Source: Escherichia coli (GTDB taxonomy: Bacteria > Pseudomonadota > Gammaproteobacteria > Enterobacterales > Enterobacteriaceae). From it: a DNA stretch of 64,000 nt. Made by a program: the position numbers and the translations under genes. Positions within the stretch are counted from its first letter, which is position 1. Each line of letters begins with the position of its first letter. This document shows positions 16,989 to 40,321 of the stretch, in pieces. The notes beneath the pieces were generated by a model. The model was not told the origin of the DNA, made no database searches, and worked only from the letters and a program-made list of their open reading frames with translations. The stretch lies in NCBI RefSeq assembly GCF_003018235.1, contig NZ_CP027437.1, one strand, 5' to 3'.

Positions 16989-18215
16989 TTATCTCACCAG
17001 CTTTTCGGCACGCTGGTGTTTGGCCTGATACATATTGTGATCGGCCAGCTCTTGTAATTTTTCCGCAGAGGCATGCTCAATGGTCATCGCGTAACCAATG
17101 CTTAATGTCATGGTGGTCTGATGACCATTATGAAGATCAAACGGGCGATTAAAGATTTGTGTCAGTGCTGAGCAAATCCGCTGAACTTCGGATTCCGACT
17201 GTACACCAAAGAGGACCATCGCAAATTCATCGCCGCCTATGCGGTATGCTTTATGTTGCAGCCCGCCAAATTCAGCTAACCGTTTTGCTACCTCAATCAA
17301 GACACGATCGCCCGTCGCATGACCCCAGGTATCATTGATATATTTGAAATTATCGCCATCAAGAAATAGTAACGCCGACGTTTTTCGGGCGTCGGAACTG
17401 CTCATCAACGTGTTGATGCCGCTACGAAACGCTGCGCGGTTAGCCAGCCCGGTTAATGGGTCATGTAGCGCGGTACGTAGAAGCTGCGCATTTTTGGCCT
17501 GTAAACGAAGCTGCCACTCTTCCATTTCATCCAGCAGACTGTTGAAGTCGAGTGCGAAGCGGTGAAATTCTGCAATGCGTTCTTCCGAAACTCGTCGGGA
17601 AAAATTGCGGTTGGAACGTACGTCATGCACGACATCGGTGATATTTTTCAATGCTTCCACCAGGCCATTGTGCAAATGGCGGGTGAGGGTAATTGCGATG
17701 CCTGATGCCAGCAGAATACAACCGGTCAGTACAGCGAGCGAAAACCAGATAAAATGGCTGATTGAACTGTCGCGAGCGGTTAAGCGTACTTCGCCAATGG
17801 TTTCACCATTGTGACGAATCGGCTGAATGATGGGGGCAGGGAAGAGCCAGTGGCTTATGAAATTGCTTAAAGTATCGCCTGGATCCTTACGGGTGTAATG
17901 CCAGGATGCCAGAATATTTTGCTGCTTATCACGTACTTCTGCAGTTGAAAATTGCCCTTGCTGGCCCAGCGCTGCCAGTGTTTCAGTTGCTGCAGGGCCA
18001 TCGGCAAAAACGACAGCTGCTTCCAGACTGTAAGTCATTGTTGCTGCTGTCAGTGCCAGGTTTTTTTGCGCGTACTGTTTCAGGGTCAGCACCGAGGTCA
18101 CGGAAAGCAGCAACCAGATCAGCATCATAGTGATAAATATGCTGGTCATACTGATGTTGCGTAATGCTCTTTTAAACGTGGGGCGCTTATTAAGAGAATT
18201 ATCGTTATCCATCAT
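16989..18215 (-). CDS. dgcN: Diguanylate cyclase DgcN (YfiN)
   Basis: 408 aa; two TM segments, HAMP, GGDEF domain (RIGGDEF motif). Confidence 0.9.
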
Positions 18216-23163: not shown

Positions 23164-24168
23164 CTATATGGACAGATTATGGACGCTTTCAGCCAGTGGA
23201 TTAAAGCTTATAGCATCCTGTAAAAAATCCGGTGCAAAATGCGCATATGTCATTGTTTGCTGGATAGTTGAATGTCCAAGAATCCGTTGAAGTGTTACTA
23301 TATTTCCTCCATTCATCATAAAGTGTGTTGCAAACGTATGCCGCATAACATGAGTTGCCTGTCCTTTGGGCAGATCTGGTTTTACTTCCTTTAGTGCTCG
23401 TCGAAAGTTTGTGTAATTAACATTAAACAATGCACCAGATTGTTTTATCTTGATGAGCTTTATAACTTCTTCGGATATAGGTATGGCGCGGGGTTTATTG
23501 GTTTTTGTCTGATTAAACATAACTCTGTTTCCCACAATATTTTCTCCCCGTAGTTTTGTTGCCTCTCCCCACCTTGCTCCTGTCGAAAGACACAGAATCG
23601 CTATTCGTTTGTTATCTCCAGTAAGATGATTGAGCAAGCGATCAATCTCTTCGTTTGATAAAAACGACATATCTGATGGTACAATCCTCAACTTCCTCAG
23701 ACCATGTAGCGGATTTGCATGGTGGAATTCTTCAGCATTAATCAGCACTGAAAACATGGCTGAAAGTACGCAGAGATCCCTGTTTACCGTGTTGGGTGTC
23801 AGTCCTGCACTGAGTTTGTTTGCACGATAACTCAGAAGGAACTTTCTGGTTACACCGTTGGCTCTGGGATCTCCCATTTCTCTGATCACTTTATTCAGCC
23901 TTTGCAGGTATGTCTCACCATAAGGCTGATTTTGCCCGTCGAGCATCCACCACATTTCGGCAAGTTCGGAAAGATGGCGTTTGTCTGCGGGTTTTTCCAG
24001 CCATGGTTTGTTATGCATGTTCTGAAGAACATATTTTTCATAATCCTGCGCTTTCGACTTCAGGGTGAAAATTTTTCGAATCCGCTTCCCTTCCGCACCC
24101 TGAGGTCTGACATCAACCTGATAACGTCCGTCTTTGAGCTGCTTAATCGACATGATTAGCACCTCCAA
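23164..24168 (-). CDS. int: Tyrosine-recombinase integrase, P2-family-like
   Basis: C-terminal catalytic region ...ATHVMRHTFATHFMMNGGNIVTLQRILGHSTIQQTMTYAHFAP...; ILCLSTGARWGEA and TKTNKPR motifs as I recall in P2 Int; true start may be the Met at 24153. Confidence 0.9.
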   Translation of the reverse strand: MEVLIMSIKQLKDGRYQVDVRPQGAEGKRIRKIFTLKSKAQDYEKYVLQNMHNKPWLEKPADKRHLSELAEMWWMLDGQNQPYGETYLQRLNKVIREMGDPRANGVTRKFLLSYRANKLSAGLTPNTVNRDLCVLSAMFSVLINAEEFHHANPLHGLRKLRIVPSDMSFLSNEEIDRLLNHLTGDNKRIAILCLSTGARWGEATKLRGENIVGNRVMFNQTKTNKPRAIPISEEVIKLIKIKQSGALFNVNYTNFRRALKEVKPDLPKGQATHVMRHTFATHFMMNGGNIVTLQRILGHSTIQQTMTYAHFAPDFLQDAISFNPLAESVHNLSI

Positions 24169-24243
24169 CGGTATTTTGTTGCTTTAATACATTTCTGTAC
24201 CTTGTAATGTATTCAATATGCAGGCCAAACCAGCATCCTGGTG

Positions 24244-24567
24244 TTATTGGTGTGATTTTGAGTTTGTTGTAGTTGAATCCTGAGCGGCCTCCGATTCTCC
24301 AGAGCCATCAAGAGAGAGAGCCGGGGCGATCTGCCCGGCCTGAGGGAAGGTTTTGCCGTGCAGGAGCCACATTGTGTATTTTTCGAACAGTGAGCACTGT
24401 AATACACGGAGGGCGATATCTGCCCGGGCAGGTTGATGTCCTGTTTCATAACTCTTAACAGAACCAAGAGCTATACCTGTTATCTCGCTAAACTTTTGCT
24501 GGGTTATTTTTTCAGCACGTCTGATCGCTCGTAGTTTTTGAGCAAAATCCATTGACAAGGTATTCAT
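24244..24567 (-). CDS. Immunity repressor, P2 C-like (HTH)
   Basis: HTH FSEITGIALGSVKSYETG; C-terminal KYTMWLLHGK..GQIAPAL resembles P2 C (KYTLWFMTN..GQIAPAL) from memory; same strand as int. Confidence 0.7.
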   Translation of the reverse strand: MNTLSMDFAQKLRAIRRAEKITQQKFSEITGIALGSVKSYETGHQPARADIALRVLQCSLFEKYTMWLLHGKTFPQAGQIAPALSLDGSGESEAAQDSTTTNSKSHQ

Positions 24568-24668
24568 ATAACGACTATCCTTCTTTTGGTTGTTGATTAA
24601 CGACGTTTGCAATAGCTGACTATAGTCGACAGTAGCCAGCAAACGCACCAACGATGGAGGATAACAAA
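24568..24668. promoter_or_regulatory. Divergent promoter/operator region between repressor and cox-like gene
   Basis: 100-bp intergenic region with perfect palindrome GACTATAGTC (24618-24627) and a GACTAT half-site at 24573-24578. Confidence 0.4.
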
Positions 24669-25127
24669 ATGCAGGAAACTATTGCAGAGGGGGGGATATT
24701 CAACGCTGGTGGGGATGACACGCAGTTACAGGAAAAGGAAGTCAGAAATAAATTATCACTGAGACTTGATGGACCTGTAGCGGATTTAGTTTTTCTGGAT
24801 AAAGGAGCAGCATACGTTGGGCTGACCAGGAAAGCGCTTGCAACAGCTTTACGTAGAGGCGAAATGCCTGGACATAAGAAAAGAAAAAATCCTGAAGATG
24901 AAACATCGCGTGGAGTGTGGATTTTTAACGTCAAGGCATGGAATGAACTTGCTGATATTTTGCCTGAAATTGAGCCACCAGAATGGCATCACTGGAAAGA
25001 TTACTGGTTATACAACCGAAACACTCGGAAATTTCAAAAGATTGATAAACAAGATTGTACACAGATTAATGGTAAACGTGTTTACAGGCCGCGTCAGAGC
25101 AGACTGGAAAAAGCACGTCAGTCATGA
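24669..25127 (+). CDS. Hypothetical DNA-binding protein in cox/apl position (possible excisionase or lytic-switch regulator)
   Basis: GGAGG SD 9 nt upstream; segment LVFLDKGAAYVGLTRKALATALRRGEMP resembles excisionase/AlpA-type HTH; divergent from repressor. Confidence 0.35.
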   Translation: MQETIAEGGIFNAGGDDTQLQEKEVRNKLSLRLDGPVADLVFLDKGAAYVGLTRKALATALRRGEMPGHKKRKNPEDETSRGVWIFNVKAWNELADILPEIEPPEWHHWKDYWLYNRNTRKFQKIDKQDCTQINGKRVYRPRQSRLEKARQS

Positions 25128-25299
25128 AACGGTATTTATTAGTAAGCAACAAGAAAGTGAATTAAACTCATCGGCAATAACTCGTTATTAAATTGTCATA
25201 CTGTCTGAAACTATTTCCTTCTATTACTGATGTGTGAGGCACGGAAAGGGAATTCCGTTTTTTTAGTGGTGCGATGAGAAAATAACAGAGGTGTCAGAA

Positions 25300-25485
25300 A
25301 TGGAAAAAGAAAAACTGAGACATTTTCGTAAAGAATTAAAAGCTTCTCAGCGTGTAATGACTTTGGCTATTAAGCGATTAGAGGAAGGACGTTATAAGTC
25401 TGCAGTGGAACTCATGCGTGCAGAAGCAGCGGATATATTTAAACTGGCAGATGAATTAAGTGATGTAACAGAACAACAATCCTGA
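25300..25485 (+). CDS. Hypothetical small protein (61 aa)
   Basis: ATG with AGAGGTG SD; helical MEKEKLRHFRKELKASQRVMTLAIKRLEEG... Confidence 0.3.
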   Translation: MEKEKLRHFRKELKASQRVMTLAIKRLEEGRYKSAVELMRAEAADIFKLADELSDVTEQQS

Positions 25486-26281
25486 ACACAGGAAAGTTAT
25501 GGGCTTGTGTGATTCAGAAAGTGTGAGGTTACGTGCAAAATGGCCAGACATGTAAAAAAGAACTTGAATGCAGTGTCGGCATGGTGGTATTTTTCATCTG
25601 CTGCCACAGTGCTGGCAGTCGGGAATACCACCCCGTATGTGTCAACGGCGACATCAGACGCCGCAAGCGTCTTTTTTGTTGTCGTAACCTTATACGCCAT
25701 GAAGCTCCATTTTATGGTGCGGTGTTATCCATTAAGAGCCGTTGCAAGCGCCTCTACCGGAAGGGGCTGGATAACATCCACCACCATGTCAATGGTAGCT
25801 CAGGCGGGGCCGACTTCGGTCGGGCCGGTTTCCGTTGGCACCGGTAGTGGTATCCCCGTCTGGGCTATCGCCAGTGAGCATACCACCTCCTGCGATAGCA
25901 GTATGTTATGTCAACGGAGGCTGCCTGAATGGCTACAATCCCAACCCAAAAGCGCCCAAAATCCGCGCTCCCCCAGCTCAGCAGTGACTGTCGTCGCCGG
26001 ATACACCGTGTGCAGATGGTTACGCTCCATTATTACATTCAGTGTCTCGCTGATAATCCGTGTTCAGTTGATTTTTGTTTTCCGTACTTATTGTCTTACA
26101 TCCACGATGATATTAAGGCTATAGATAATGAGTTAATTTCTCTTGGCCTGTTTGAACAGGCGATGGGAAAGAAAAAACGACGATAGTTTTCATCGTTATT
26201 AATTAACGTTGTCAGGAAGTATTAAACACACCGCTCACGCGGCGGGAATCTTACATCTTAAATATCTGACGAGGTGGAAAC

Positions 26282-26437
26282 ATGAAGCTGTTTTCATTAC
26301 GTAAAAATAAAAAAACGGAAAAAAAGAAACGCACTTATCCGGCAAATAATAACGTCCGTCTGTTACGTTATTACCAGAAATTACAGGAATTAAGTTGTGA
26401 ACCGGATAAAAAGTTCAGCCTGGATGTGTGGATGTAA
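26282..26437 (+). CDS. Hypothetical small basic protein (51 aa)
   Basis: Strong SD GAGGTGG 6 nt upstream; immediately precedes the exonuclease gene; preceded by the conserved 19-nt motif at 26228-26246. Confidence 0.3.
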   Translation: MKLFSLRKNKKTEKKKRTYPANNNVRLLRYYQKLQELSCEPDKKFSLDVWM

Positions 26438-26448
26438 TGGGGGAATAA

Positions 26449-27024
26449 ATGAACGATCTGATGATTGATACTGAAACAACAGGAACATCCCATCATTCAG
26501 GGATTATTTCCTTTGCCGCAGCATTTTTTAATCCAGATACCGGAGATAAAGGTGACCACATTTATCTTCGCCTGGACTGGGTGAGTGCGACACGTAATGG
26601 CGCAGTGATTGATCCGGAGACATTCTGTTTCTGGTTAGAGCAATCGACAGAAGTAAGAATGGAAGCCGTCAGGAAAGACGAAAGTATTTCTGAACGTGAC
26701 GCCACATATGCGCTGATTAATTTTATTGAGCAGCGTGCTGATATCAGACGGGTGCGTGTCTGGGCGAAGTCACCCACGTTTGACTGCTCACTTCTTCGTG
26801 ACATGTGTGATCGGAGTATTGGGTCAAATACCAGCGTAGAAATGTTGTGGCCGTTCTGGAATGAGAGAGATGTCAGGACTGTTGAAGGGCTTGCCGCGCA
26901 TCTTGGCATTCCGTTGCCTTACTCCAGAAAGGAAGTCACTCATCATGCTCTTAATGACGTTATGGGGCAGATAAAAAATGTGGCTACCGTATTTGCAGCA
27001 CTGCGTGGCGTGATGGAGGTGTGA
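26449..27024 (+). CDS. DEDDh-type 3'-5' exonuclease (DnaQ-like)
   Basis: Exo I motif MIDTETTGT at N-terminus; later acidic/His residues (HHALNDV) consistent with Exo III. Confidence 0.65.
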   Translation: MNDLMIDTETTGTSHHSGIISFAAAFFNPDTGDKGDHIYLRLDWVSATRNGAVIDPETFCFWLEQSTEVRMEAVRKDESISERDATYALINFIEQRADIRRVRVWAKSPTFDCSLLRDMCDRSIGSNTSVEMLWPFWNERDVRTVEGLAAHLGIPLPYSRKEVTHHALNDVMGQIKNVATVFAALRGVMEV

Positions 27025-27025
27025 T

Positions 27026-27244
27026 GTGAATAAAGCACAACGTAATGCTGCAGCGGCAGCGAATCGTCACAGGGTCTCGCCGGAACAGGTGCTCATCTGG
27101 TGTGAGCAACTGAAACGCATTGTGGACACAGCAAACCAGAATACGCGGCACAACGAAAAGAGCAGGGCGCTTGAGCCGATTATTGCGTGGATTGAGCAGC
27201 AGAAGAAACAGGCAATGGAAGAAATCAGAAAACGGGGTGAATGA
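27026..27244 (+). CDS. Hypothetical protein (72 aa)
   Basis: GTG start with GGAGGTG SD overlapping exonuclease stop; translationally coupled to the next gene (ATGA overlap). Confidence 0.4.
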   Translation: MNKAQRNAAAAANRHRVSPEQVLIWCEQLKRIVDTANQNTRHNEKSRALEPIIAWIEQQKKQAMEEIRKRGE

Positions 27245-29283
27245 AAATGGCAGAAGAAAAGAATCAGGAATATGCATATGTATTTCCGGTAAAAAACGAA
27301 GCCGCCAGAAAACGCCTGGGTTTTGCGCATGGCTTTTACTGGAAGAGTGATTGCTCACAGGCGAGAGTGTTGCTTCGGGCGAATGTTGCCATGCTGGATG
27401 CGGGTTTTGAACCGGAGGATTTCAAAAAGCCTGTACGTGTTAATTTCCCGGTGGTGAACGAACTCCCAGCGGAAGGTGTTTTTGATACGGAATTTTGCCA
27501 CCTGTATGTACCGGGCGGTGAAGACGGCAAGACGATGGTGTATATCGACGCTGTAAAACAGGAGGCAGACAAGGAAAAAAACAACGTAGCCAGTAACACC
27601 AACGTCAACGGCGAAGATATGACTGAGATTGAGGAGAGCATGCTTCTGCCGATTTCCGCTCAGGAGTTGCCAGTTCGCTGGCTGGCGCAACACGGGAAGG
27701 AGAACCCCGTTACTCACGTTTCCAGAGACGAACTTCAGGCTTTACATGTTGCACGGGCGGAAGAATTACCGGCAGTTACTGCACTGGCGGTTTCCCACAA
27801 AACAGGCCTGCTCGACCCGCTGGAGATCCGCGACCTTCACAAACTGGTGCGTGATACTGACAAAGTTTTCCCTCATCCTGGCAATTCAGACCTGGGGCTC
27901 TTGACTGCTTTTTTTGAAGCATACCTGAATGCTGACTACACCGATCGCGGTCTGCTGACAAAAGAATGGTGCAAAGGAAATCACATATCCCGCCTGGAAC
28001 GTAAAAAAATACAACCAGAGAGCGCAGAACCGCTACGTGCAACCAGGGAAAGACCGCGGCGTAGTGAAAAACCAACCTTCAGAACGATTAATTATGAAAT
28101 CGCCTGTGCTTTATGCCCGGGTGCGGACTGTCATGATTTACGTCCGGTGGTGAATTCAGCGAAGAAACTGATGGCTGACGGGGATGAAAGATGGCGGGCA
28201 TGGTCGACATCTCTTGGCATTACTGAAGGGATTAAAAACTGGGACAGAAAAACGATTTTTGACATGGTCAGTCAGGCTCCGTCACATGTCACAACGGGGT
28301 CAGCAGAGGCGCGCAGGGAGTGGATTGAAAACTTTCTGATTGCACGTGGTGTGCGTGATCCGGAGTGGGCTGAGCCGCTTGTATGCGTTTCCGTACCGGA
28401 ACATGAAGATAATCTGGAAAGAGTTCGCGGTGCAGGAAAACGTCTGCGGAAGCTTGAGAATAGTGATTGCACATTTCAGGCAGACAACGGTTCTGGGGAG
28501 GCTGAGGTGGTTGAAGCGGACGAAAGCAAAGCAACGTCATCTGCTGAAATTCAGGATGCCGATAAATTACTGGCCGCTTACCGTGGTGAATATGTTGAAG
28601 GGATTAGCGACCCGAATGATCCGAAGTGGGTGAAGGGGATCCAGAGACGCGATGATGAGGACCAGGATCAGGCTGAAGCGGAACAAGACGACCAACACGT
28701 GGAACGGAACAGCCCAGATGCGAGACAAAACGAGCCTGATACGGAACAGAATGAGCAAGGAGCACTGCAGGGACCGGAAAAAGTCTGCGACACCTGCGGA
28801 CAGGACGGAGGTGGAAAATGTCCGGATTGCGGTTCTGTCATGGGGGATAGCACATACAGTGCCGTTTATGGCGGGGATCGAGAGGAGTCAGCGTATGTGG
28901 CAGAGCATGGTGCTTTGAATAATCAGAGCAAAGTTACAGTTGGCGAGGTCATGGAGATCATGAAAGCGGTTAAGCCAGCCGTTCATGTTGATGCTGAAGG
29001 GGAAACGGAAGAGATAAACGGTGATCAACTATCACTGCAGACTGAAAATAAGGATGACCGGTCATCACGGAAAGCGTCAGAAGATGTGCCCATGTTTATC
29101 AGTGAGACCGTTCTCCATAAGGAGGATGGTGAGGCAAATATGAATATCTGTGAGTTGGTGAACATGTTGCATCAGCAACAGGAAATGCTGAAAGAAATCC
29201 GCTCAACTCAGGCCCGCTTTATGGGCGCGATTGTAGCCATGCTTTCGGTTATTTCAGGGGGAGAGCAGGTAGGACATGAGTAA
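27241..29283 (+). CDS. Hypothetical 680-aa protein with acidic tract and CxxC-x9-CxxC zinc ribbon
   Basis: Long ORF with balanced composition; CDTCGQDGGGKCPDCGS motif; D/E/Q-rich segment; no NTPase motif seen. Confidence 0.6.
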   Translation: MKMAEEKNQEYAYVFPVKNEAARKRLGFAHGFYWKSDCSQARVLLRANVAMLDAGFEPEDFKKPVRVNFPVVNELPAEGVFDTEFCHLYVPGGEDGKTMVYIDAVKQEADKEKNNVASNTNVNGEDMTEIEESMLLPISAQELPVRWLAQHGKENPVTHVSRDELQALHVARAEELPAVTALAVSHKTGLLDPLEIRDLHKLVRDTDKVFPHPGNSDLGLLTAFFEAYLNADYTDRGLLTKEWCKGNHISRLERKKIQPESAEPLRATRERPRRSEKPTFRTINYEIACALCPGADCHDLRPVVNSAKKLMADGDERWRAWSTSLGITEGIKNWDRKTIFDMVSQAPSHVTTGSAEARREWIENFLIARGVRDPEWAEPLVCVSVPEHEDNLERVRGAGKRLRKLENSDCTFQADNGSGEAEVVEADESKATSSAEIQDADKLLAAYRGEYVEGISDPNDPKWVKGIQRRDDEDQDQAEAEQDDQHVERNSPDARQNEPDTEQNEQGALQGPEKVCDTCGQDGGGKCPDCGSVMGDSTYSAVYGGDREESAYVAEHGALNNQSKVTVGEVMEIMKAVKPAVHVDAEGETEEINGDQLSLQTENKDDRSSRKASEDVPMFISETVLHKEDGEANMNICELVNMLHQQQEMLKEIRSTQARFMGAIVAMLSVISGGEQVGHE

Positions 29284-29497
29284 GTTAAGTGATGAAGCGT
29301 GTGATGTTTTTGAATGTCTGCTGGCATCAGAACGGAATACAGCACGGGGTGTGGCAAAAGAGTTACAGATATCTCCGGCAACTGCGGTTGAAATACTGAA
29401 ACGGCTGGAGGAAGAAGGGCTGGTAACACAACTGAATGGCTTCTGGTCTGTGCAGGAAAAGAAAAGCAACGGGAGTAAAAATGGAAAACATAGTTGA
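29276..29497 (+). CDS. Small winged-helix-like protein (paralog 1)
   Basis: TARGVAKELQISPATAVEILKRLEEEGLV pattern shared with 29481, 30300 and 37514 ORFs. Confidence 0.5.
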   Translation: MSKLSDEACDVFECLLASERNTARGVAKELQISPATAVEILKRLEEEGLVTQLNGFWSVQEKKSNGSKNGKHS

Positions 29498-30284
29498 TGC
29501 CCTGAAAGCGATGGGTAAAGCCACGTCAGTGGAACTGGCTGCGCGTCTCCAGATCAGCCGTGAGGAAGTACTGAATGAACTCTGGGAATTGCGGCGCAGT
29601 GGTGTTGTGGATCAAAACTTACAGGTCTGGACACTGGCCAGCGATGGTGCGCAACGGGAACAAAAAACGCCTGCTGCGGTGTATCAGCGTGATAACAAGG
29701 AGGAGCGTAAATTACGTGAGGTCGTCAGTCGCCAGGAGCGAGCGCCACTGAATCGCAGTGATATTCTGTCCGCGTTTGCTCATTGTGAGGAAATGACCAC
29801 CGCGGAGATAGCAACAGCAGTGGGGCGCGCTGATAGTGTCAGGTCGTTGGTTTCCGCAATGGAAAAACTTTGTCGTACTGGTCTGGTAATCAAAATGGGG
29901 CAGGGTAAGGGGTGTAAGTGGAAACTGGTAAAAAAATCCGGTGAAAATTTACCAACAGTGCCAGAAACAGAGCCGGTAGCGCTGTCCGGTGGTAAATCTG
30001 AGTCTGCCGCTGTGGTGGTCGATTTGCCACAGCAGAAAACGCAGACCAAAACCAAACAAGAGACTGTGACGGACATTGTGCAGTCGCTGCCATCGTTTAC
30101 CGCAACGCGGTATGATGACCTGATTTTACCATCGCTGCATATGGCAAACCGCGAACTGCGTCGGGCGAAAAGTCATGTCCAGAAGTGGGAGCGAGTCTGC
30201 GCCGCGCTGCGGGAGCTGAACAAGCACCGGGATATTGTTCGACAGATTACTGATTCTTCCCGCCGGGTTGCATCGGAAAAGTGA
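29481..30284 (+). CDS. Tandem winged-helix-like protein (paralogs 2a/2b)
   Basis: Two internal copies of the same ~50-aa pattern (ATSVELAARLQISREEVLNELWELRRSGVV and MTTAEIATAVGRADSVRSLVSAMEKLCRTGLV); GGGAG SD. Confidence 0.5.
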   Translation: MENIVDALKAMGKATSVELAARLQISREEVLNELWELRRSGVVDQNLQVWTLASDGAQREQKTPAAVYQRDNKEERKLREVVSRQERAPLNRSDILSAFAHCEEMTTAEIATAVGRADSVRSLVSAMEKLCRTGLVIKMGQGKGCKWKLVKKSGENLPTVPETEPVALSGGKSESAAVVVDLPQQKTQTKTKQETVTDIVQSLPSFTATRYDDLILPSLHMANRELRRAKSHVQKWERVCAALRELNKHRDIVRQITDSSRRVASEK

Positions 30285-30299
30285 TTGCCGGAGGCGCTT

Positions 30300-30722
30300 A
30301 TGGCAAAAGTATTTACACAAGAAGAGCGGGAAAAAATTAAAGGGCAGGTTGTTGAGCTAGTACGCCGGAGTGGGCGCGAGACGTTACGGCAACTGGAAGC
30401 CAAGACAGGTGTGACAAGATATCTGATGAGCGTTCTCGCCAGAGAGCTGGTTGCCAGTGGCGATGTATACAACTCTGGTTACGGGTTATTCCCCTCTGAA
30501 CAGGCTCGTAAGGACTGGCAAAACGCCCGTAAAAAACTATCTAGGGCAAAGGTAAAAAAAACGGTTGTGGTTGATCCTGACCTTATCTGGTCATTACCTG
30601 ATGGAGAAATACGCCGCTACGACAGGAGCCTGAATATAATCTGTCGCGAGTGCCGGAAGAGCGAAGCTATGCAGCGTGTACCGGCTTTCTATCAGGGCAA
30701 TTTTCAGGAGGCGGTACTGTGA
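30300..30722 (+). CDS. Winged-helix-like protein (paralog 3)
   Basis: VVELVRRSGRETLRQLEAKTGVTRYLMSVLARELVASGDV; GGAGG SD. Confidence 0.5.
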   Translation: MAKVFTQEEREKIKGQVVELVRRSGRETLRQLEAKTGVTRYLMSVLARELVASGDVYNSGYGLFPSEQARKDWQNARKKLSRAKVKKTVVVDPDLIWSLPDGEIRRYDRSLNIICRECRKSEAMQRVPAFYQGNFQEAVL

Positions 30723-30779
30723 GTGAAATTAGCTATCAGGCTTCAATTACCGCTGGCATTCGCATCAAAGGAGAGGAGC

Positions 30780-31136
30780 ATGGAAATAAAACCAGAAGAT
30801 GAGTTAAGCAATATCGTTTTATTCCCGGTAAAAGAGGATGACCCTCGTAATCGGGTTAATTTTCTTTATGAGCCATCGGAAAGACCATATTGCCATCACG
30901 CTTCTGTCCGGGTTGACGAAAAAGAGCGTCAGGTCCGCTGTAAAATCTGCGGCGCAGTTGTGGAGCCATTTGACTGGATGCTCTCTGTGGCGAAAAGAGA
31001 AACCAGACTGGCAGATGATGTAAGGCTCTTGCGCCAGGAGGAACGGGAAAGGCGAAAAAATATAGAAAAGCTAATTCAGATTGAGCGTAACGCGAAAGCG
31101 CGGATACGCAGGGTGACAAAATACAGAACTGAATAA
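30780..31136 (+). CDS. Hypothetical protein with Cys/His cluster
   Basis: AGGAGAGGAG SD; YCHHASVRVDEKERQVRCKICG; basic C-terminus. Confidence 0.45.
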   Translation: MEIKPEDELSNIVLFPVKEDDPRNRVNFLYEPSERPYCHHASVRVDEKERQVRCKICGAVVEPFDWMLSVAKRETRLADDVRLLRQEERERRKNIEKLIQIERNAKARIRRVTKYRTE

Positions 31137-31187
31137 TTAAATTCAGCACTGCAAATAAAAATTAAATCCTTAACTTGAGGTATATCT

Positions 31188-31400
31188 ATGTTAAATACAC
31201 AGAAAACAATTAACGCGGAAAAATATAACGAGTGGGTGAGAAAATTCTCTGAGCAGATTTTTAAAATTACTGGCGACGAGAATGTGGCAAAAAATGAATT
31301 AGAGCCGTGGACACCTGAAGGAACCGACCCAAATTATTGTTGGTGGGAGGTTGATCCGGTTGATGCTGCAAATGAAGCCATGAGTTACTACAACGATTAA
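31188..31400 (+). CDS. Hypothetical protein (70 aa)
   Basis: ORF with upstream GAGG; no recognisable motif. Confidence 0.35.
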   Translation: MLNTQKTINAEKYNEWVRKFSEQIFKITGDENVAKNELEPWTPEGTDPNYCWWEVDPVDAANEAMSYYND

Positions 31401-31435
31401 TGCCGGAAGACTACCCGAAAGAGAGGTAATGAAAA

Positions 31436-32065
31436 ATGGCTGAATTAACCAAAGAATGGCTAAAAAACATGATTACCGGAATTGAGTCGGTAATAGACGA
31501 TAAATCGTTTGTATGTGATGAAATAGTATTCAAAATAGGTGAGGTTAAAAACATACTTACCGCATTTAAAGTCGCGCTGGCATCGCTGGAAGCAGAGCCG
31601 GTGGCTGAGATTAGAGCGCACTACCCATTAGGGATTAACGGCGGTAAACAAAAGTTCGTCCAGGCCATTGGAGATCTTCCTGACTTTGGCGGACATCTGT
31701 ACGCCGCTCCGCCAGCGCCTGTAGTGCCGGATGAGGGGCGCGACAAGTTTGAAGCAATTATCAGGTTTCATGTCGGTGATGAAAACCATGAAACATTATT
31801 GCTGCGGGCCAACGAAGGGATGAATTACCGGGACCCAAATGTTGATTTTGCATGGATATTCTGGAAGTCCAGTCGTGAGCATCTGCTTCGGAATAATGAC
31901 GGCAGTCTGCCAGAATCGGGTCATCAGGTACGCGGATTAACACTGCTGGTTAAGCGACTGGCCAGTTCATTAAAAAGCGTCAATAAATCCAGCAAGCTGC
32001 CTGATAAGGCGCTGGAGTATCTGAAGCAGAACGGACTGATAAGCGTGGAGGATATTTTACGATGA
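31436..32065 (+). CDS. Hypothetical protein (209 aa)
   Basis: ORF with SD AGAGAGG; no recognisable motif. Confidence 0.45.
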   Translation: MAELTKEWLKNMITGIESVIDDKSFVCDEIVFKIGEVKNILTAFKVALASLEAEPVAEIRAHYPLGINGGKQKFVQAIGDLPDFGGHLYAAPPAPVVPDEGRDKFEAIIRFHVGDENHETLLLRANEGMNYRDPNVDFAWIFWKSSREHLLRNNDGSLPESGHQVRGLTLLVKRLASSLKSVNKSSKLPDKALEYLKQNGLISVEDILR

Positions 32066-32149
32066 CCTGGCCTGAAGCATTCACCACGGCAGGAATTGCG
32101 ATGGCGGTGGCACTGGTTGTGTATTCTATTTGTCGTTGGGGGTAAACAC

Positions 32150-32401
32150 ATGTTCTCTCTGATTCAGCGTGGTCAGCGGTATGTTGATGCAGCTGGTTAT
32201 CCTGTGGAGATTTGTTTTTGTTCTGCTGAGAAAGTGGTGTATCGCCGCCAGGACAATCAGACCCGTTCTGCAAGTATTGTTGACTTTAATCAGAATTTTG
32301 AACGTCTGGATTATCACGAATATATACGGATTAAATCAGATATGGAGCAGACAGAACATCTGCGGAAATTAAGACGATTACACAAAAGAGGTGGGGAATA
32401 A
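32150..32401 (+). CDS. Hypothetical protein (83 aa)
   Basis: Internal ATG with GGGGG SD; MFSLIQRGQRYVDAAGYPVEICF... Confidence 0.35.
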   Translation: MFSLIQRGQRYVDAAGYPVEICFCSAEKVVYRRQDNQTRSASIVDFNQNFERLDYHEYIRIKSDMEQTEHLRKLRRLHKRGGE

Positions 32402-32894
32402 CCACGGATAAAGAGAACTAAATTTCGTCAGAATTAACAGGAAATAACTGGAACGAAAAATACACCGCTTACGCGGCGGGGTTTCTGCAACCTTAAAACA
32501 GGGTAAGAGAAATGGCAGAGATGATGAACAATAAACTCTTCATAACCAGTCTCTTTAAGTTGACTGGCCGGGAGTAACGACCAGTGGCAATACAAAAAAA
32601 CCGCTTGCCAGCGTTTGTCTGGTCGGGTTACATTTCCCGTGCACCTCATAAAACGGGTGCCGGGATTCTCAACCCGCAGAAGAACAGAGCGCATAACCGC
32701 GCCAGCGGTTTTTTTATGCGTGCCGTATCGTCACACCTTTTTCGCACACGAATTATGGCGGGGCGTACGGGGCCGACTTCGGTCGGGCCGGATCCTCTGT
32801 TCTCCGGTGTTGAGAACCCCGTACGTCTCGCCACCCCGAGATTCTCAACTCTGGATGGTGAGTTATGTCTATCACTGAACAGAGGTTACCCCTT

Positions 32895-33125
32895 ATGGCA
32901 AACCGTAAACAACAGCGCGCCCGCACTGAGCGTCGTCACATCCAGACCGAAATCAACCGCAGACTGTACCGGGCTATCACTGTCGCCAGAGTCATGTACT
33001 TCAATATGCTGTGTGATCAGGGATGCCAGATTGCACCTGATTACATTGCCTCCACGTTCAGTTACCTGGCAGACGATCTGCGGGATATGCAACGCCTGGT
33101 TAACGATCAGGCGCATAACCTGTAA
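32895..33125 (+). CDS. Hypothetical small basic protein immediately upstream of repA
   Basis: MANRKQQRARTERRHIQTEINRRLY...; alternative start at 32865. Confidence 0.35.
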   Translation: MANRKQQRARTERRHIQTEINRRLYRAITVARVMYFNMLCDQGCQIAPDYIASTFSYLADDLRDMQRLVNDQAHNL

Positions 33126-33203
33126 CGCACTTTTTCCTGAAATCATGAAACGGCACTCCGCTATCTGGCGGGGTGTCTGGCTGCCCGTTATCCGGGAGGA
33201 CAT

Positions 33204-35126
33204 ATGACCGTGTATTCAGCGGGAGGTCCGCGCATGCCTGAGCCGGAAGAAGAACAGGCATTCACTGAAGAGGTGAACAGCGCCTTTTCCGGGCTGCCTC
33301 GTTTTGTGTCTGTAAAGCTGGGGCGCAGGATCAGCAGCGCATGGCAGACAAAGGGTTTTGCCGGTGCACGGGAAAAATTTGCGCTGATGGTTCAGAAGGA
33401 TTTGCCGTTCATTACCGGGGTGAATAAACGTTATGCCATTAATCCGGATGAATTACCGGGGTGGCTGTTTGGTGGGCTGGCATCTGATCAGGCATACGGT
33501 GCGGTTCATTCCATGACCTGGCGATTTAATGCCATGGTGGATGGTGACGACGGGGATGCGCATTTACTGGCTCAGGATCTGTCCGTGTTTCTTATTGCTG
33601 AAATGCAGCACCTGAGTGTTCTTCTTGCGGATGAAGATGCGGATGCGGCGGCAGATGCCATTTATGCCATGGTTGCCGGGCTTGTTGAGCATTTCCGGAT
33701 GGAGCCACCGGACTGGAAGCGTTTTATTGGCAGAAAGCTGACACTGGAGCAACTGACTGTTGCCATCAGCCGGATGCTGAGTGTTCGCTGGTGGCAGGGA
33801 AAACTCAGGGCATTCTCCCGTCGCTGGCGTGAACATCTGCTTATAGCTATGGGTGTCGTTCGTCGGCAGTCTTCACCGCACTGCAGTTATGAATGGGTGC
33901 AGAGGTGGCTGGCGGGGCGTAAGCACGGTCGAAGGCTGATGGCGGAAACGGACGTTGAGGATGAAGAAACAGGAGAAAGATTTTCACTTCTCGATTTGGT
34001 TGACAGCAGCATTTCAGATGCGGAGAAACGCCGCGCAGAGCTGATGACCAGGGTTAAGGGGCTGGAAGATTTAGCCCGTTTTGAAGGTGTGGCGCAGGAG
34101 CAGGGGTATATCGGGCTTTTTTTCACGATGACCGCGCCATCAAAATATCATGCCTGGCTGGAGACAGGATATCGCAATCGTCGTTATAACGGCGCAAGCC
34201 CGAAAGACACACAAAATTATTTCTCCGGACTCTGGCGTCAGATCAGTGCAACGCTGAGGCGCAGGGGGATCGGGATTTTTGGATTAAGAAGTGCCGAACC
34301 GCATCATGACGGAACGCCGCACTGGCATGGTGTTCTCTATGTGCATCAGGAGCATGCTGCCGCCTTACAGGACATTCTTGAGTATTACGCCAACCGCGAT
34401 GATGACGCGGGAAAAACGCCCATCCGCAAAGCAGGAAGAAAATCCCACCTGGAAATAAAACCGGTTCTTGATGATCTGGGGAGTGCCTCTGCCTATATCG
34501 CCAAGCATATTGGAATGAATCTTGACGGTTGTGCGCCAGGCGGAATGAATCATGAAACGGGCCATACACTGGTGGTCACTGCCCGCCACGCCTCGGCGTG
34601 GGCGTCATTATGGGGGATCAAGCAGTTTCAGTTTATAGGCAGCACACCGGTAAGTGTATGGCGTGAGCTGCGTCGCTTTAACAATCAGGCTCATGCTGAC
34701 CGGATAAGCCCGGCGCTGGGTGAGTTACACCGTGCAGCCAGTGAGGGTGACTGGAAAACCTATACCAGGCTGCAGGGTGGACCGTTTGTGGCACGAAGAG
34801 ATCTGGTCCTTCGCACATGGTATCAGCGTTCGGAGGAGCCGGATGAGTGTGGGCTACACACCAGTGCGATCAAAGGTGTTTATATGCCGGGGCGTGATAC
34901 GCCACCGGTAGTGACGCGTTCACGTAACTGGAGGATCACCCGGAACGTTACAACAGGCGCTCTCAATGTTAACCGGGGGTCTGCTTTAACGCCCTGGACT
35001 TGTGTCAATAACTGCATTTCGGGCAGAAAACGACCAGATGGTCATCCTCCGGATCCAGGTATAAGGATCCCTGTTCAACTGGAACTGAACTTCGGGGAAG
35101 AGAATAAAGGGAAAAGTGAGCAGTAA
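33204..35126 (+). CDS. Rolling-circle replication initiation endonuclease (HUH family; P2 gpA-like)
   Basis: GGGAGGA SD; HUH-type motif GTPHWHGVLYV; 640 aa in the position of gene A relative to int-C-cox. Confidence 0.75.
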   Translation: MTVYSAGGPRMPEPEEEQAFTEEVNSAFSGLPRFVSVKLGRRISSAWQTKGFAGAREKFALMVQKDLPFITGVNKRYAINPDELPGWLFGGLASDQAYGAVHSMTWRFNAMVDGDDGDAHLLAQDLSVFLIAEMQHLSVLLADEDADAAADAIYAMVAGLVEHFRMEPPDWKRFIGRKLTLEQLTVAISRMLSVRWWQGKLRAFSRRWREHLLIAMGVVRRQSSPHCSYEWVQRWLAGRKHGRRLMAETDVEDEETGERFSLLDLVDSSISDAEKRRAELMTRVKGLEDLARFEGVAQEQGYIGLFFTMTAPSKYHAWLETGYRNRRYNGASPKDTQNYFSGLWRQISATLRRRGIGIFGLRSAEPHHDGTPHWHGVLYVHQEHAAALQDILEYYANRDDDAGKTPIRKAGRKSHLEIKPVLDDLGSASAYIAKHIGMNLDGCAPGGMNHETGHTLVVTARHASAWASLWGIKQFQFIGSTPVSVWRELRRFNNQAHADRISPALGELHRAASEGDWKTYTRLQGGPFVARRDLVLRTWYQRSEEPDECGLHTSAIKGVYMPGRDTPPVVTRSRNWRITRNVTTGALNVNRGSALTPWTCVNNCISGRKRPDGHPPDPGIRIPVQLELNFGEENKGKSEQ

Positions 35127-35253
35127 ATTTTCCGGTTAAGTCAGCGGAAGAAACTGGACTTGTCCGGAGAATAAAAATACCGGTTTTACCTGGGCATGGT
35201 TTTATATACAGTGTCGCTGTATGGCGACAGTTAAGTGAAAAATGAGGTGGAAC

Positions 35254-35523
35254 ATGAGAGGACTGGAGCTTGAACGAATGACGCCGGAAAAAATGCATGC
35301 AATTGGTATGGAGTTCATCAGGAGATCTGAGGCCATGACGCAGGCGGGGATGACAAAAGACGCTGTCAGAAAAAATCTGCTTCCGGCGATACAGCGCCTG
35401 AACCGTGCAAAACATGAGCTTCAGATGGTGGTTGATCAGATGATCGATAAGGCAGCAGAGCTGGAAAAGTATAGCAGTGCGCTTGAAAAAATCATTCAGG
35501 ATATTGTGGGCACTGAGCAGTAA
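35254..35523 (+). CDS. Hypothetical coiled-coil protein
   Basis: GAGGTGG SD; 89 aa. Confidence 0.4.
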   Translation: MRGLELERMTPEKMHAIGMEFIRRSEAMTQAGMTKDAVRKNLLPAIQRLNRAKHELQMVVDQMIDKAAELEKYSSALEKIIQDIVGTEQ

Positions 35524-35533
35524 GAGGTGGGGT

Positions 35534-36613
35534 ATGCAGGCGATCCTGACGGTATTCCCGCAGCGTAATGCCGGGATAACACTGATGAAAACAGGTAATC
35601 TGACAGCGCGGTTCAGGGACGGGCAGAGAATAATGATAAGGGATGTTCCGTCTGTGATGGCTGGGATGCCATCAGGAGAAATTCCGTCATCAGGACAGAG
35701 GCTGGCGGAAGAGGAAGGACTGACGGCTTTCTTTGCTGACGGAAGGGTAATAAAGCGTGCTGGTGGCAGTGATGCCATGGCGCGTTGGGTGAGCAGGATT
35801 GCAGGCTGCCAGTGTGAGAATGGTGATCACGTGGAGAACATGACAACAGCGCGGACAATGCAGGGAGAGGCGCTTCGGTTATGCCATGCCTGTGATAATC
35901 ATCATTATATGAAAGGATATCGGGCGCTGGCAGATGTGGCAGCCAGAAATCGTGCAGAATGGCTGATGGATTATATCAGGATGAGTCTGGGGCTGGGGGA
36001 AGATCATCAGGTGACCATTCCTGAGTTGTTTTGCTGGGCAGTGCTGAATGATGTGGCAGATGCTGTTCCGGTTATGATCGTAAGGCGTATCAGACAATTG
36101 CCGGAAGAGGAAAAGCTGAGCGGCACGATGAAAGAAGCAGATATTAATCCCTGGCAGACATCAGCAGGCACAGTGGTGAAGAAACTGGCAGATAATGCGA
36201 AGAGCGTTAATGTGTGCAATGTGCGGGTCAGACATGCAGTACGCCAGGAAGAACACAAAGAAATGGAAAAACCGGTGCTGAAACTTGTTGCAGACAGTGA
36301 TCCGGCTGCGGGCTATATGAGGAAGCCCAGAATGCAGCGGCTGTCTCTGCCGGGTTATACCTCGTGGGTGAAGCGTCAGCGATGCTGTGGATGCGGGAAA
36401 CCTGCAGATGATCCGCATCACATCACCGGGCACGGTTTTGGTGGTGCAGGGATAAAAGCCAGTGATTTGTTTGTGATCCCGCTGTGTCGGCAATGTCATC
36501 AGGAATTACACAATGACAGCAAGGCATGGGAGGAGAAAAACGGCAGTCAGTTGCTGTGGGTGATAAGGACGCTGGACAGGGCAGCGGGCATTGGCGCTTT
36601 AGTTGGGGGGTAA
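35534..36613 (+). CDS. Hypothetical protein with C-terminal HNH-like Cys/His nuclease motif
   Basis: CCGCGKPADDPHHITGHGFGGAGIKASDLFVIPLCRQCHQELHND; translationally coupled to upstream gene. Confidence 0.55.
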   Translation: MQAILTVFPQRNAGITLMKTGNLTARFRDGQRIMIRDVPSVMAGMPSGEIPSSGQRLAEEEGLTAFFADGRVIKRAGGSDAMARWVSRIAGCQCENGDHVENMTTARTMQGEALRLCHACDNHHYMKGYRALADVAARNRAEWLMDYIRMSLGLGEDHQVTIPELFCWAVLNDVADAVPVMIVRRIRQLPEEEKLSGTMKEADINPWQTSAGTVVKKLADNAKSVNVCNVRVRHAVRQEEHKEMEKPVLKLVADSDPAAGYMRKPRMQRLSLPGYTSWVKRQRCCGCGKPADDPHHITGHGFGGAGIKASDLFVIPLCRQCHQELHNDSKAWEEKNGSQLLWVIRTLDRAAGIGALVGG

Positions 36614-36614
36614 C

Positions 36615-37319
36615 ATGACACCGCAACAGATGGTATGGGCGAGAGAGCAGGTTATTTTTGCACTGAATCCACCGGATAAACGTCAGAAGGGGCAACTGGA
36701 GGCATTTGGTGATTTTGCCAGGTCAGACACCAGGCGTTACGGGAGGCAGAGAAACAGGACACTGAACATTGATGGCCGGTGGTATTGTCAGGATGGTGAT
36801 CCGGTACATGCTGCGGCAACAGCCTGTTATGCAATACAACCGGATATGATCACCAGGGAAGCGTTCAGAACGGCACAACTGAGGAGGAGGATTTATTGTC
36901 TGGAGGATTATCATCGGGCCTGGGTGTTATTCAGTTACAGCTTGCAGAAAAAACGAATACACCATCTTCTGGTCAGTGAGTACATCTGGATGAGGATGTT
37001 CGAGCGGTTGCAGGGGAAACGGGTTACGGACAGGATGACAGGAAATCTGATTGAAATAGCGAGGATGGCTGCATGGAATGCTGCAGTGACAGCCGGTGGG
37101 ATTGTTGCAGGTAAGGTTCTGATTGCTCCTTCATGTGCGGCGCAGATTGCAGGTGTAAAACCAAACACATGGAGTCAGCATTACAAGGCTCACTGGTGTT
37201 TTATGCATGAAGTATGCGATGAACTGGATCATGAGGCGCTGGTGACCATTACAGGAATAAAAAATCACCAAAAAAACGGCGAAAAATATAAATTTGCTAA
37301 AGTGAATATTTTAAGGTAG
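36615..37319 (+). CDS. Hypothetical protein (234 aa); a late-gene antiterminator role is possible by position only
   Basis: Last long ORF before a terminator and the late region; no motif recognised with confidence. Confidence 0.4.
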   Translation: MTPQQMVWAREQVIFALNPPDKRQKGQLEAFGDFARSDTRRYGRQRNRTLNIDGRWYCQDGDPVHAAATACYAIQPDMITREAFRTAQLRRRIYCLEDYHRAWVLFSYSLQKKRIHHLLVSEYIWMRMFERLQGKRVTDRMTGNLIEIARMAAWNAAVTAGGIVAGKVLIAPSCAAQIAGVKPNTWSQHYKAHWCFMHEVCDELDHEALVTITGIKNHQKNGEKYKFAKVNILR

Positions 37320-37365
37320 ATTTGAGGCAAATTTGATAGTCTGCCGTATTTGTAAGCAGAGCATA

Positions 37366-37389
37366 AACCCGCATATTGCGGGTTTTTTT
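37366..37389 (+). terminator. Rho-independent terminator
   Basis: ACCCGC-atatt-GCGGGT hairpin followed by TTTTTTT. Confidence 0.55.
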
Positions 37390-37513
37390 ATGCCCGAAAT
37401 TTTCCCTCAGCGCAATAAATACGCTGGTGGTTGTGAGTACCGGTCTTTCAGCTTGCTGGCTTTTTCGACAAGAGTTATTGGTATGCCACGTTAACCGGAC
37501 AGGGGGAAAAGAC

Positions 37514-39457: not shown

Positions 39458-39534
39458 GCGCCGTTAGCTCAGCTGGACAGAGCAATTGCCTTCTAAGCAA
39501 TCGGTCACTGGTTCGAATCCAGTATGGCGCACCA
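39458..39534 (+). tRNA. tRNA-Arg (anticodon UCU)
   Basis: Manual cloverleaf: acceptor GCGCCGT/ATGGCGC, D-arm GCTC..GAGC, anticodon loop CTTCTAA, T-arm ACTGG-TTCGAAT-CCAGT, CCA end. Confidence 0.85.
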
Positions 39535-39535
39535 T

Positions 39536-39610
39536 GCGGTCATCGTATAATGGCTATTACCTCGGCCTTCCAGGCTGATGATGCGGGTTCGATTCCAGCT
39601 GGCCGCTCCA
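39536..39610 (+). tRNA. tRNA-Gly (anticodon UCC)
   Basis: Manual cloverleaf: acceptor GCGGTCA/TGGCCGC, anticodon loop CTTCCAG, T-loop TTCGATT, CCA end; close to glyT tRNA as I recall it. Confidence 0.8.
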
Positions 39611-39768: not shown

Positions 39769-40321
39769 TATTTTTAGTATTTAGCCAGAGTGGCCCAAAC
39801 AGAAAATAAAGTTACTGTGAAACAGGGGGGCCTAATAAAAATAATCACCACTAAATTCGGGGCTTTAAAAATGCTAAGAACATCACATTTCATTATGCCG
39901 GGTACTGGAGAATAACATGATGTTTTGTTAAAAATGATTTTGCATGGTGAATCCCCCTGTGCGGCGGGGCATAATGACAGATGTTTGGTTGCGTATTGTA
40001 TAGGCAAGTTGCGGATTCTGTCTGGTCATTGCAGAATTCACCGGGAGGCACCCGGCACCATGCAGATAATTGTTTTGTGGATGATAATACCAGCCCCTCT
40101 CCGGAGGGGCTTTCTTATGGGCGAAAAAAAGCCCGGGGAGCCGGGCAATAGCATGAGATATACGTTTTTATAGACGTACAGATTTTAATCAGAATTTATG
40201 GGGCTGCGCAACTGCGTGGCCTTTTTTGTTTTGTGGGCTAAGGTTTTCCCCTTTGATTCGCCATGTGGCTGAACCTGTAGCCCGCCACTGTTCAGACGCA
40301 ATCCCGGCAAGGGGAGGAATA

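Follow-up and report, generated by a model that had tools for sequence, protein, structure and literature searches.

A 64,000-nt stretch of the Escherichia coli contig NZ_CP027437.1 (assembly GCF_003018235.1), referred to below as the window, carries within a prophage two plus-strand copies of a 19-nt motif, ACACCGCTCACGCGGCGGG (26228–26246) and ACACCGCTTACGCGGCGGG (32462–32480). We found that the 19-mer is the invariant core of a larger, family-wide unit of about 40–70 nt that stands at module junctions, with defined limits, a fixed orientation and placement, a stop in all three frames and mosaic gene partners. We tentatively read this element as a portable module-junction cassette of the early operons of enterobacterial temperate phages, which may act in cis on the transcript and also serve as a patch of homology.

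The two copies are the only matches to the motif in the 64 kb even when up to three mismatches are allowed (chance expectation 0.04), and none of 100 shuffled windows contained two matches. An nhmmer profile built on 47 family members returned the same two sites, 26222–26263 (E = 6.6e-13) and 32458–32497 (E = 8.6e-13), with the third-best site at E = 0.29. A preliminary description of this DNA had reported both copies and had singled out CCGC-N4-GCGG as a short inverted repeat; the analysis bears it out on the two points, with the copies far above chance. Direct similarity between the copies is a little longer than the 19-mer (AAAYACACCGCTYACGCGGCGGG; repeat family D11) and continues more weakly downstream of the dyad as GGG-N4-YTRCA-N1-2-CTTAAA. 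The same description placed the motif 35–40 nt before two short open reading frames (ORFs). The distance from the motif end to the ATG is 35 nt for the ORF at 26282, which has the Shine–Dalgarno (SD) sequence GAGGTGG; for the ORF at 32512 it is 31 nt, and this ORF is a gene remnant, not a gene.

The whole unit consists of three-frame stops in an AT-rich tract, a TTTWAAA run, the dyad and a 3' box. Dyad-anchored information content delimited a core of about 42 nt, TTTWAAA-CACCGC-TCAC-GCGGCGGG-ATTC-GTRCA-RCCTGAA, with a recurrent AATTAA(C) box further upstream. In the window, the 5' part of copy 1 (26184..26228, plus strand) is AT-rich and begins at the stop codon of derep-1, the first of two derepression protein genes; it contains TAG/TAA stops (the TTAATTAA box), and a TATTAAACA run adjoins the dyad. 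The core of copy 1 (26222..26263, plus strand) holds the dyad CACCGC-TCAC-GCGGCG (26229–26244) followed by GGG-AATC-TTACA-TCTTAAA. The 5' part of copy 2 (32405..32462, plus strand) follows the stop codon of a DUF4222 gene; it is likewise AT-rich, closes every reading frame (TAA at AATTAACA, AATAACTG) and has a GAAAAATA run, and the core (32458..32497, plus strand) comprises the dyad CACCGC-TTAC-GCGGCG (32463–32478) and then GGG-GTTT-CTGCA-ACCTTAAAA.

All 52 distinct instances of the element lie between genes and share their orientation; the preceding ORF ends about 25–100 nt before the dyad, and the following one starts 25–36 nt after the GGG. Homology between contexts stops right after CCTGAA, 16 nt past the GGG, where the downstream gene brings its own SD, and this explains the constant distance from motif to start codon. 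All three plus-strand frames were stopped in 22 of 23 non-redundant upstream 45-mers, compared with 31% of shuffles and 39% of reverse-strand sequences, a contrast that is somewhat overstated in raw form because one of the stops is often the upstream gene's own, but that is still large and strand-specific. A compact stop form such as TAATTAATTAA was present in 10 of the 23 upstream tracts, against 5% of shuffles. When the arms were left free in the search pattern, GCGGCGGG was kept in 46 of 46 instances and CACCGC in 68 of 70, and the arm variants seen were three (CATCGC, CACTGC and CAACGC). The central four nucleotides vary (TCAC, TAAC, TTAC, TTAG, ACAT, TCAT, TCTC, CCAC, TCAG).

The window locus is rare in E. 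coli (6 of 5,426 complete genomes), and the element, present in 11 of these genomes, is confined to prophages. The motif is conserved in six related E. coli prophages and in Salmonella relatives, with two copies at the same two positions. The Salmonella records L345/L347 and L346 represent diverged relatives of the same prophage type. In L345 the copies lie about 4.9 kb apart, the second preceding a short ORF, the isrK promoter, isrK, a C4 antisense RNA, derep and gpA, and L346 has the motif upstream of a homologue of orf51 (the gene that follows copy 1) and lacks a C4 module in the vicinity. These Salmonella variants are what allowed the conserved 3' box to be recognised.

In viral contigs, a pattern with the outer arm left free, CGC-N4-GCGGCGGG-N5-TRCA-N-CYT-N-AA, returned 63 loci, and the addition of flank-only patterns brought the total to about 80 IMG/VR prophage loci (L348–L429). 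The preliminary description had given a lack of conservation elsewhere as grounds for doubting the motif; it recurs in E. coli and Salmonella prophages and in these viral contigs. In the nin region of the isolated Salmonella phage SPN3UB, the element separates an Eaa-like gene from gp56, and a lambdoid pL-type operon reads RecT, DUF1187, element, Cys-rich ORF, xis, int. The element is also present in a P88-like E. coli prophage, and no copy was found in phage P88 itself. Scans of viral and genome contigs with the bare dyad or the strict motif were swamped by chance matches in GC-rich genomes, and a metagenome scan with the dyad gave chance matches only. An unrelated recurrent sequence, GCATCCAG-CACCGCCTGCGCGGCGGG-GGAGAGGTCAGTCAT, has the dyad pattern by chance at many IMG/VR loci (e.g., L059, L060, L118 and L121), and appears to be the reverse strand of a conserved gene 5' end (ATGACTGACCTCTCC...) in GC-richer phages. 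A literature search found no paper containing the element sequence.

The behaviour of the element at junctions is mosaic. Its neighbours combine in many ways, at least 13 gene families on the upstream side being joined to at least 9 on the downstream side, which implies that the element travels with neither neighbour. Five prophages (L368, on the reverse strand, L354, L357, L371 and L372) have a 2.3-kb insertion relative to L356, a cassette of an 85-aa ORF and a 693-aa C5-cytosine DNA methyltransferase. The left joint of this insertion falls exactly at the 3' edge of the element, and the right joint lies at the SD of the next gene, with no second copy. We consider it quite improbable that the element is the site of a dedicated host or phage factor promoting cassette joining or exchange in an integron- or homing-like manner. 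The dyad and 3' box would then form the cleavage or synapsis site, with breakpoints after CCTGAA, and the changes tolerated at codon-like wobble positions would recall those in the targets of homing endonucleases. We rejected an insertion like that of a miniature inverted-repeat transposable element with target duplication, which would leave unoccupied sites with a single flanking repeat (CTGAAT): in a single test on one gene pair, no DUF1187-to-D1 junction in IMG/VR had a gap as short as 30 nt.

The gene behind copy 2 has itself been subject to deletion. In strain SCU-171, a full-length Rha/Ant-like anti-repressor gene, which matches the PHROG anti-repressor Ant (E = 1e-41), begins at the same ATG as the ORF at 32512. 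The window and SCU-111 retain about 14 N-terminal and about 5 C-terminal codons of rha. Strain ES5 and an IMG/VR relative (L125) have another, larger deletion, and in L125 the ATG is changed to ATA. At least two independent rha deletions with different end points have occurred (window, 32512–32577; L003, 16347–16385; L125, reverse strand, from about 13696 onward), and SCU-171 alone has the complete gene. The motif-bearing leader is kept in all of the deletion forms, including L125 without the ATG. Judged by its alignment with the full-length gene (L002, 16162–16848), the 21-codon plus-strand ORF at 32512–32577 is a deletion remnant and should not be annotated as a gene. An association of the motif with rha as such was rejected, as 80 lambdoid loci encoding Rha homologues lack the motif.

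Taken as a module-junction cassette, each copy would be a spacer between two independently exchangeable genes or blocks. Its 5' part would stop translation from any upstream gene in any frame; then come the GC-rich dyad beside an AU-rich run and the 16-nt 3' box, which ends just before the ribosome-binding site of the next gene. From this layout we infer a cis action on the polycistronic plus-strand transcript, which would uncouple the downstream gene from an upstream fusion. The small hairpin next to the AU-rich stretch could be where the RNA is processed or its stability is set, or where a host factor recognises it. Since the same unit stands at many junctions, it may in addition act as a homology patch for cassette swapping between related phages, and in the window the two copies bracket the 6.2-kb accessory block. 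The C-to-T arm variants CATCGC and CACTGC keep the plus-strand pairing as U.G and break the pairing on the minus strand, which is weak evidence for action on the plus strand.

Several observations weigh against this reading. The plus-strand hairpin has 4–5 bp and a folding energy of −6 to −7 kcal/mol, and its stability does not exceed that of shuffled sequences (z for the core, −0.5 to −1.8; z for the whole unit, +0.2 to +1.0). No compensatory changes were found among the five predicted pairs, and the arms never covary. The arms are identical in contexts with unrelated flanks, a pattern that suits recognition of a specific sequence better than it suits a generic structural hairpin. The 2.3-kb indel, the only one that is well resolved, did not arise by recombination between copies, because its right joint carries none. 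Finally, the substitutions show a coding-like period of three, which the cassette model does not explain.

The main rival is recognition by a protein, to which we give a clearly smaller share of belief: the element would be a sequence-specific DNA or RNA site for a factor common to all carriers, either from the Enterobacteriaceae host or a widely shared phage protein, whose binding would gate the transcription or expression of the accessory block that follows. The site would consist of a dyad of 16 bp, CACCGC-N4-GCGGYG, whose half-sites are centred 10 bp apart, and an asymmetric 3' extension. Near-invariant arms around a variable central four nucleotides, sameness of the arms across copies without covariation, RNA stability at background and a conservation that reaches 16 nt past the dyad with no structural rationale all favour this reading. 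It is harder to reconcile with the absence of a convincing adjacent promoter for a regulator to control and of the dyad from the C/cox immunity switch, and the three-frame stop and fixed gene orientation speak instead for a function linked with translation or the transcript. The carriers (P2-like hybrid, P88-like and lambdoid) have unrelated immunity and regulatory genes, so that a partner encoded by the phages is not evident, and we know of no host regulator site that matches the dyad.

The preliminary description had offered an operator, a promoter element or a leader RNA structure as possible functions. An operator for the immunity repressor was rejected: the C/cox switch region (24540–24660) has no dyad with up to two mismatches, and the element also occurs in carriers with unrelated immunity systems. 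As for a leader RNA structure, the leader position stands and a structure may yet form there, but covariation and stability give it no positive support. RNAalifold supported the dyad hairpin alone. With Rfam 15, neither copy had a match at the gathering threshold, and the majority form gave, at E values up to 10, only a chance match to Moco-II (E = 9.4). Further RNA candidates were rejected as well. A second leader hairpin sequestering the SD is not conserved, a pseudoknot between the loop and the GTRCA box showed no covariation by inspection, and pairing with C4 or IsrK found no convincing complementarity by eye, the element also occurring without C4 (L346, SPN3UB).

The substitution pattern raises the question of whether the core is, or was, protein-coding, as a micro-ORF or the relic of a gene end reading ...L-N-T-A-H-A-A-G-F-V-Q-P-E, with the dyad as a by-product of ACC GCT CAC GCG GCG. 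The frame concerned (the NTAHAAGFVQPE frame) reads AAC ACC GCT CAC GCG GCG GGA TTC GTR CAR CCT GAA and lies at 26227–26262 and 32461–32496 in the window. Among 40 distinct cores, changed codons in this frame were synonymous in 60 cases (43%) and not in 79, compared with 25 against 134 (16% synonymous) and 28 against 97 (22%) in the other plus-strand frames, a comparison in which the substitution counts are not phylogenetically independent. Variability by codon position follows 3 > 1 > 2, with codons such as GGN, NTN (F/I/L), NTN (V/L/M/A), CAR and CCN, and neither ACAT, the loop that diverges most, nor the arm variant CACTGC alters the peptide read in this frame. Nevertheless, we regard coding as improbable. 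The frame is open for just 0–13 codons upstream because of the three-frame stop, has no SD before it and lacks a conserved start: where the commonest form has ATG, its close relatives read ACG or ATA. The GCG GCG codons are invariant at their third positions, and a translated search of 50,697 phage records recovered the peptide only in SPN3UB, where it is unannotated. The period of three could be a relic, a coincidence arising from few variable sites, or the mark of a recognition in which changes at wobble-like positions are allowed.

If the element were a promoter driving the downstream block (sigma-70, with transcription starting at the dyad, or sigma-54 of the form GGCGGG-N4-YTGCA), each cassette would be a transcription unit in its own right, as in the promoter-early stem-loops (PeSLs) of T4. 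The upstream tract is AT-rich, TTAACA-16-AAAAAT adjoins the dyad in window copy 2 (9/12), and L346 has TTAACC-17-TTAAAT. The GG-N10-GC spacing fits sigma-54 geometry, and the start predicted from it leaves a 12–19-nt leader with an SD. This function appears quite improbable all the same. The sigma-70 candidates score 6–8.5/12, their register shifts from one variant to another and the majority form has none, and the region contains about as many promoter-like sites as chance would give (12, with 10.5 expected). With a matrix derived from 29 Salmonella sites supported by chromatin immunoprecipitation (PMC3844500), the variants score −9 to +0.6 for sigma-54, compared with 16–24 for true sites; 250 window positions score 0 or more, so that the variants are at background. 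E. coli copy 1 also has AC where sigma-54 needs the essential GC. The promoter element of the preliminary description was therefore not supported in either form.

Transcription termination was assessed on both strands. An intrinsic terminator on the plus strand was rejected, with a median discriminant of −73, none of 51 variants positive and no U tract; three real terminators of the window, used as controls, gave −6 to +8. On the minus strand, a terminator might end, for example, a short cis-antisense RNA over the start of the downstream gene, as with P22 sar or lambda oop. The stem there has 6 bp including a G.U pair (−10.7 kcal/mol; z of −2.5 and −3.2), with GUGA/GUAA loops and, in the window copies, a U-rich tail. 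The family as a whole fits poorly, which makes this the least probable function that we weighed, with very little to be expected of it. The median discriminant is −13, one of 51 variants is positive, the window copies are marginal (d = −2.3 for copy 2), the majority tail is UUUAAAAG, and the variants CATCGC and CACTGC break the stem. No conserved leftward promoter lies downstream and there are no minus-strand genes.

The closest described system is the PeSL of T4-type phages, an experimentally studied precedent (PMC2839356) to which the element can be likened. In PeSLs an AT-rich tract is combined with a strong sigma-70 promoter and with a terminator formed by a GC stem-loop; they are about 100 bp long, end at the SD or ATG of the next gene, flank ORFans and mediate cassette shuffling, and recombination between copies, yielding mini-circles, has been demonstrated (PMC2839356, PMC4122927; Arbiol et al. 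2010, Comeau et al. 2014). The element is likewise a short intergenic unit with an AT-rich 5' tract, a GC-rich stem-loop and the SD or start of the next gene at its 3' edge. It is concentrated between non-essential or ORFan genes, brackets cassettes as direct repeats in the window and in Salmonella relatives, and is present at an indel or replacement breakpoint of related phages. Unlike PeSLs, it has no consistent sigma-70 promoter, its stem-loop is far below terminator scores on the plus strand, and its carriers are temperate P2-like and lambdoid phages rather than virulent T4-like ones. The three-frame stop tract is a feature of the element outside the PeSL definition. Because the two defining features, promoter and terminator, fail, we do not file it as a PeSL and regard this 40–70-nt unit as a previously undescribed form of module-junction cassette.

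The 'boundary' or 'linker' sequences of lambdoid phages are short conserved stretches found where exchangeable modules meet, and homologous exchange has been proposed to take place at them. The element shares with them a short conserved sequence at module borders, but it is one well-delimited family with an invariant dyad, found at many unrelated junctions in several phage types. Repetitive extragenic palindromes (REPs) are imperfect palindromes of 35–40 nt with their own consensus, present in hundreds of chromosomal copies and mobilised by RAYT transposases (REP-associated tyrosine transposases), and they function in mRNA stability or decoupling and are substrates for recombination. Like REPs and bacterial interspersed mosaic elements, the element is a co-transcribed GC-rich hairpin in operon intergenic gaps; it differs in its 16-nt dyad, asymmetric conserved flanks and restriction to prophages. 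Integron attC sites, of 57–141 nt with R and L boxes, are recombined as folded single strands by the IntI integrase. They resemble the element as hairpin-forming repeats at the borders of promoterless cassettes, one per cassette and in a single orientation, but the element has a dyad of 16 nt and no integron integrase nearby, the only integrase in the window being that of the prophage (23164–24168). With lambda nut sites it has in common two copies per phage and a small GC hairpin in a transcribed leader, with stems identical between copies. A lambda-type nut site was nonetheless rejected: there is no conserved boxA (the A/U-rich run varies), the 4-nt loop is variable, and the copies all point the same way and stand at a distance from the early promoters (ahead of xis-int, within the nin region or ahead of the replication module). 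The hybrid and P88-like carriers also have no N-type gene in the P2-like early region.

The prophage of the window is inserted beside pheL/pheA and is a P2-like/lambdoid hybrid (23164–37500). Its left end is P2/186/P88-like, with the integrase (23164–24168), a C-type helix-turn-helix repressor, Cox and gpA; DUF968, Q and lambdoid late genes come after gpA. In plus-strand order, the left side runs through the first C4 antisense RNA (25788–25875; Rfam C4, 74 bits), derep-1 (25929–26186; named by its product in the Prokaryotic Genome Annotation Pipeline (PGAP) annotation of strain ES5) and copy 1 to orf51 (26282..26437), the exonuclease and the rest of the 6.2-kb block ending in DUF4222. orf51 has a strong SD, is conserved in the E. 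coli relatives and in Salmonella L346, and matches no PHROG family. The accessory cargo between the two copies (26282..32401, plus strand) contains orf51, a 3'-5' exonuclease, a RecE-like 680-aa protein, winged-helix proteins, DUF1627, Ea22-like and DUF4222. On the right, copy 2 is followed on the plus strand by the 21-codon ORF, the isrK promoter (32605–32634), the isrK/a1b1 RNA (32641–32715; Rfam), the second C4 antisense RNA (32751–32838; Rfam), derep-2 (32865–33125; PGAP 'derepression protein') and the gpA replication endonuclease (33204–35126).

The 6.2-kb block between the two C4-RNA/derepression immunity modules is a delimited accessory module. The preliminary description had put the motif at the edges of a cargo block; the motif does mark these edges, and the block is variable, its inner part differing between related prophages. 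It had also seen a hairpin repeat, which proved to be the C4 antisense RNA gene pair (repeat family D1), and a mirrored layout, with hairpin then motif on the left and motif then hairpin on the right. That order is correct, with the C4 RNA as the hairpin, but the layout is no true mirror because all four features share the same direct orientation.

The two C4 modules are P1-immI-like, with loop regions that differ and hence different predicted target specificity. The SCU-171 relative (L002) has three C4 genes (9329–9416, 9685–9775 and 17022–17109). Since the second C4 module directly precedes the gpA gene, replication may be under antisense-RNA immunity. Canonical plus-strand terminator hairpins with T-runs lie after cox (25241–25258) and before the first C4 RNA (25656–25672), so that the early operon is interrupted and downstream blocks need read-through, antitermination or promoters of their own. 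Just 5' of the isrK −35 element, an A-run with CCGCTTGC (32594–32608) is complementary to the isrK terminator (32701–32715) over 15 nt (93%), and could permit alternative pairing in read-through transcripts from upstream. Downstream of Q are tRNA-Arg(tct), tRNA-Gly(tcc) and a match to the STnc100 RNA (39458–39610, 39912–40122). In the host region between ssrA and pheA, TGGCATAGAGAGTGCATG (7750–7767, plus strand) is the top sigma-54 matrix match of the window (15.2; known sites, 16–24).

Temperate phages carry much of the variable cargo of enterobacteria, such as defence, anti-defence, methylase, anti-repressor and recombination genes, and how new genes slot neatly between existing ones is still debated. 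The element provides a concrete candidate for a junction signal, whose parts (three-frame stop, dyad and 3' box) lend themselves to separate mutation and for which SPN3UB is an isolated carrier phage. It may serve as a compact insulator part in operon design, and in P2-like and lambdoid phages alike this easily recognised sequence is a landmark by which cassette boundaries can be annotated.

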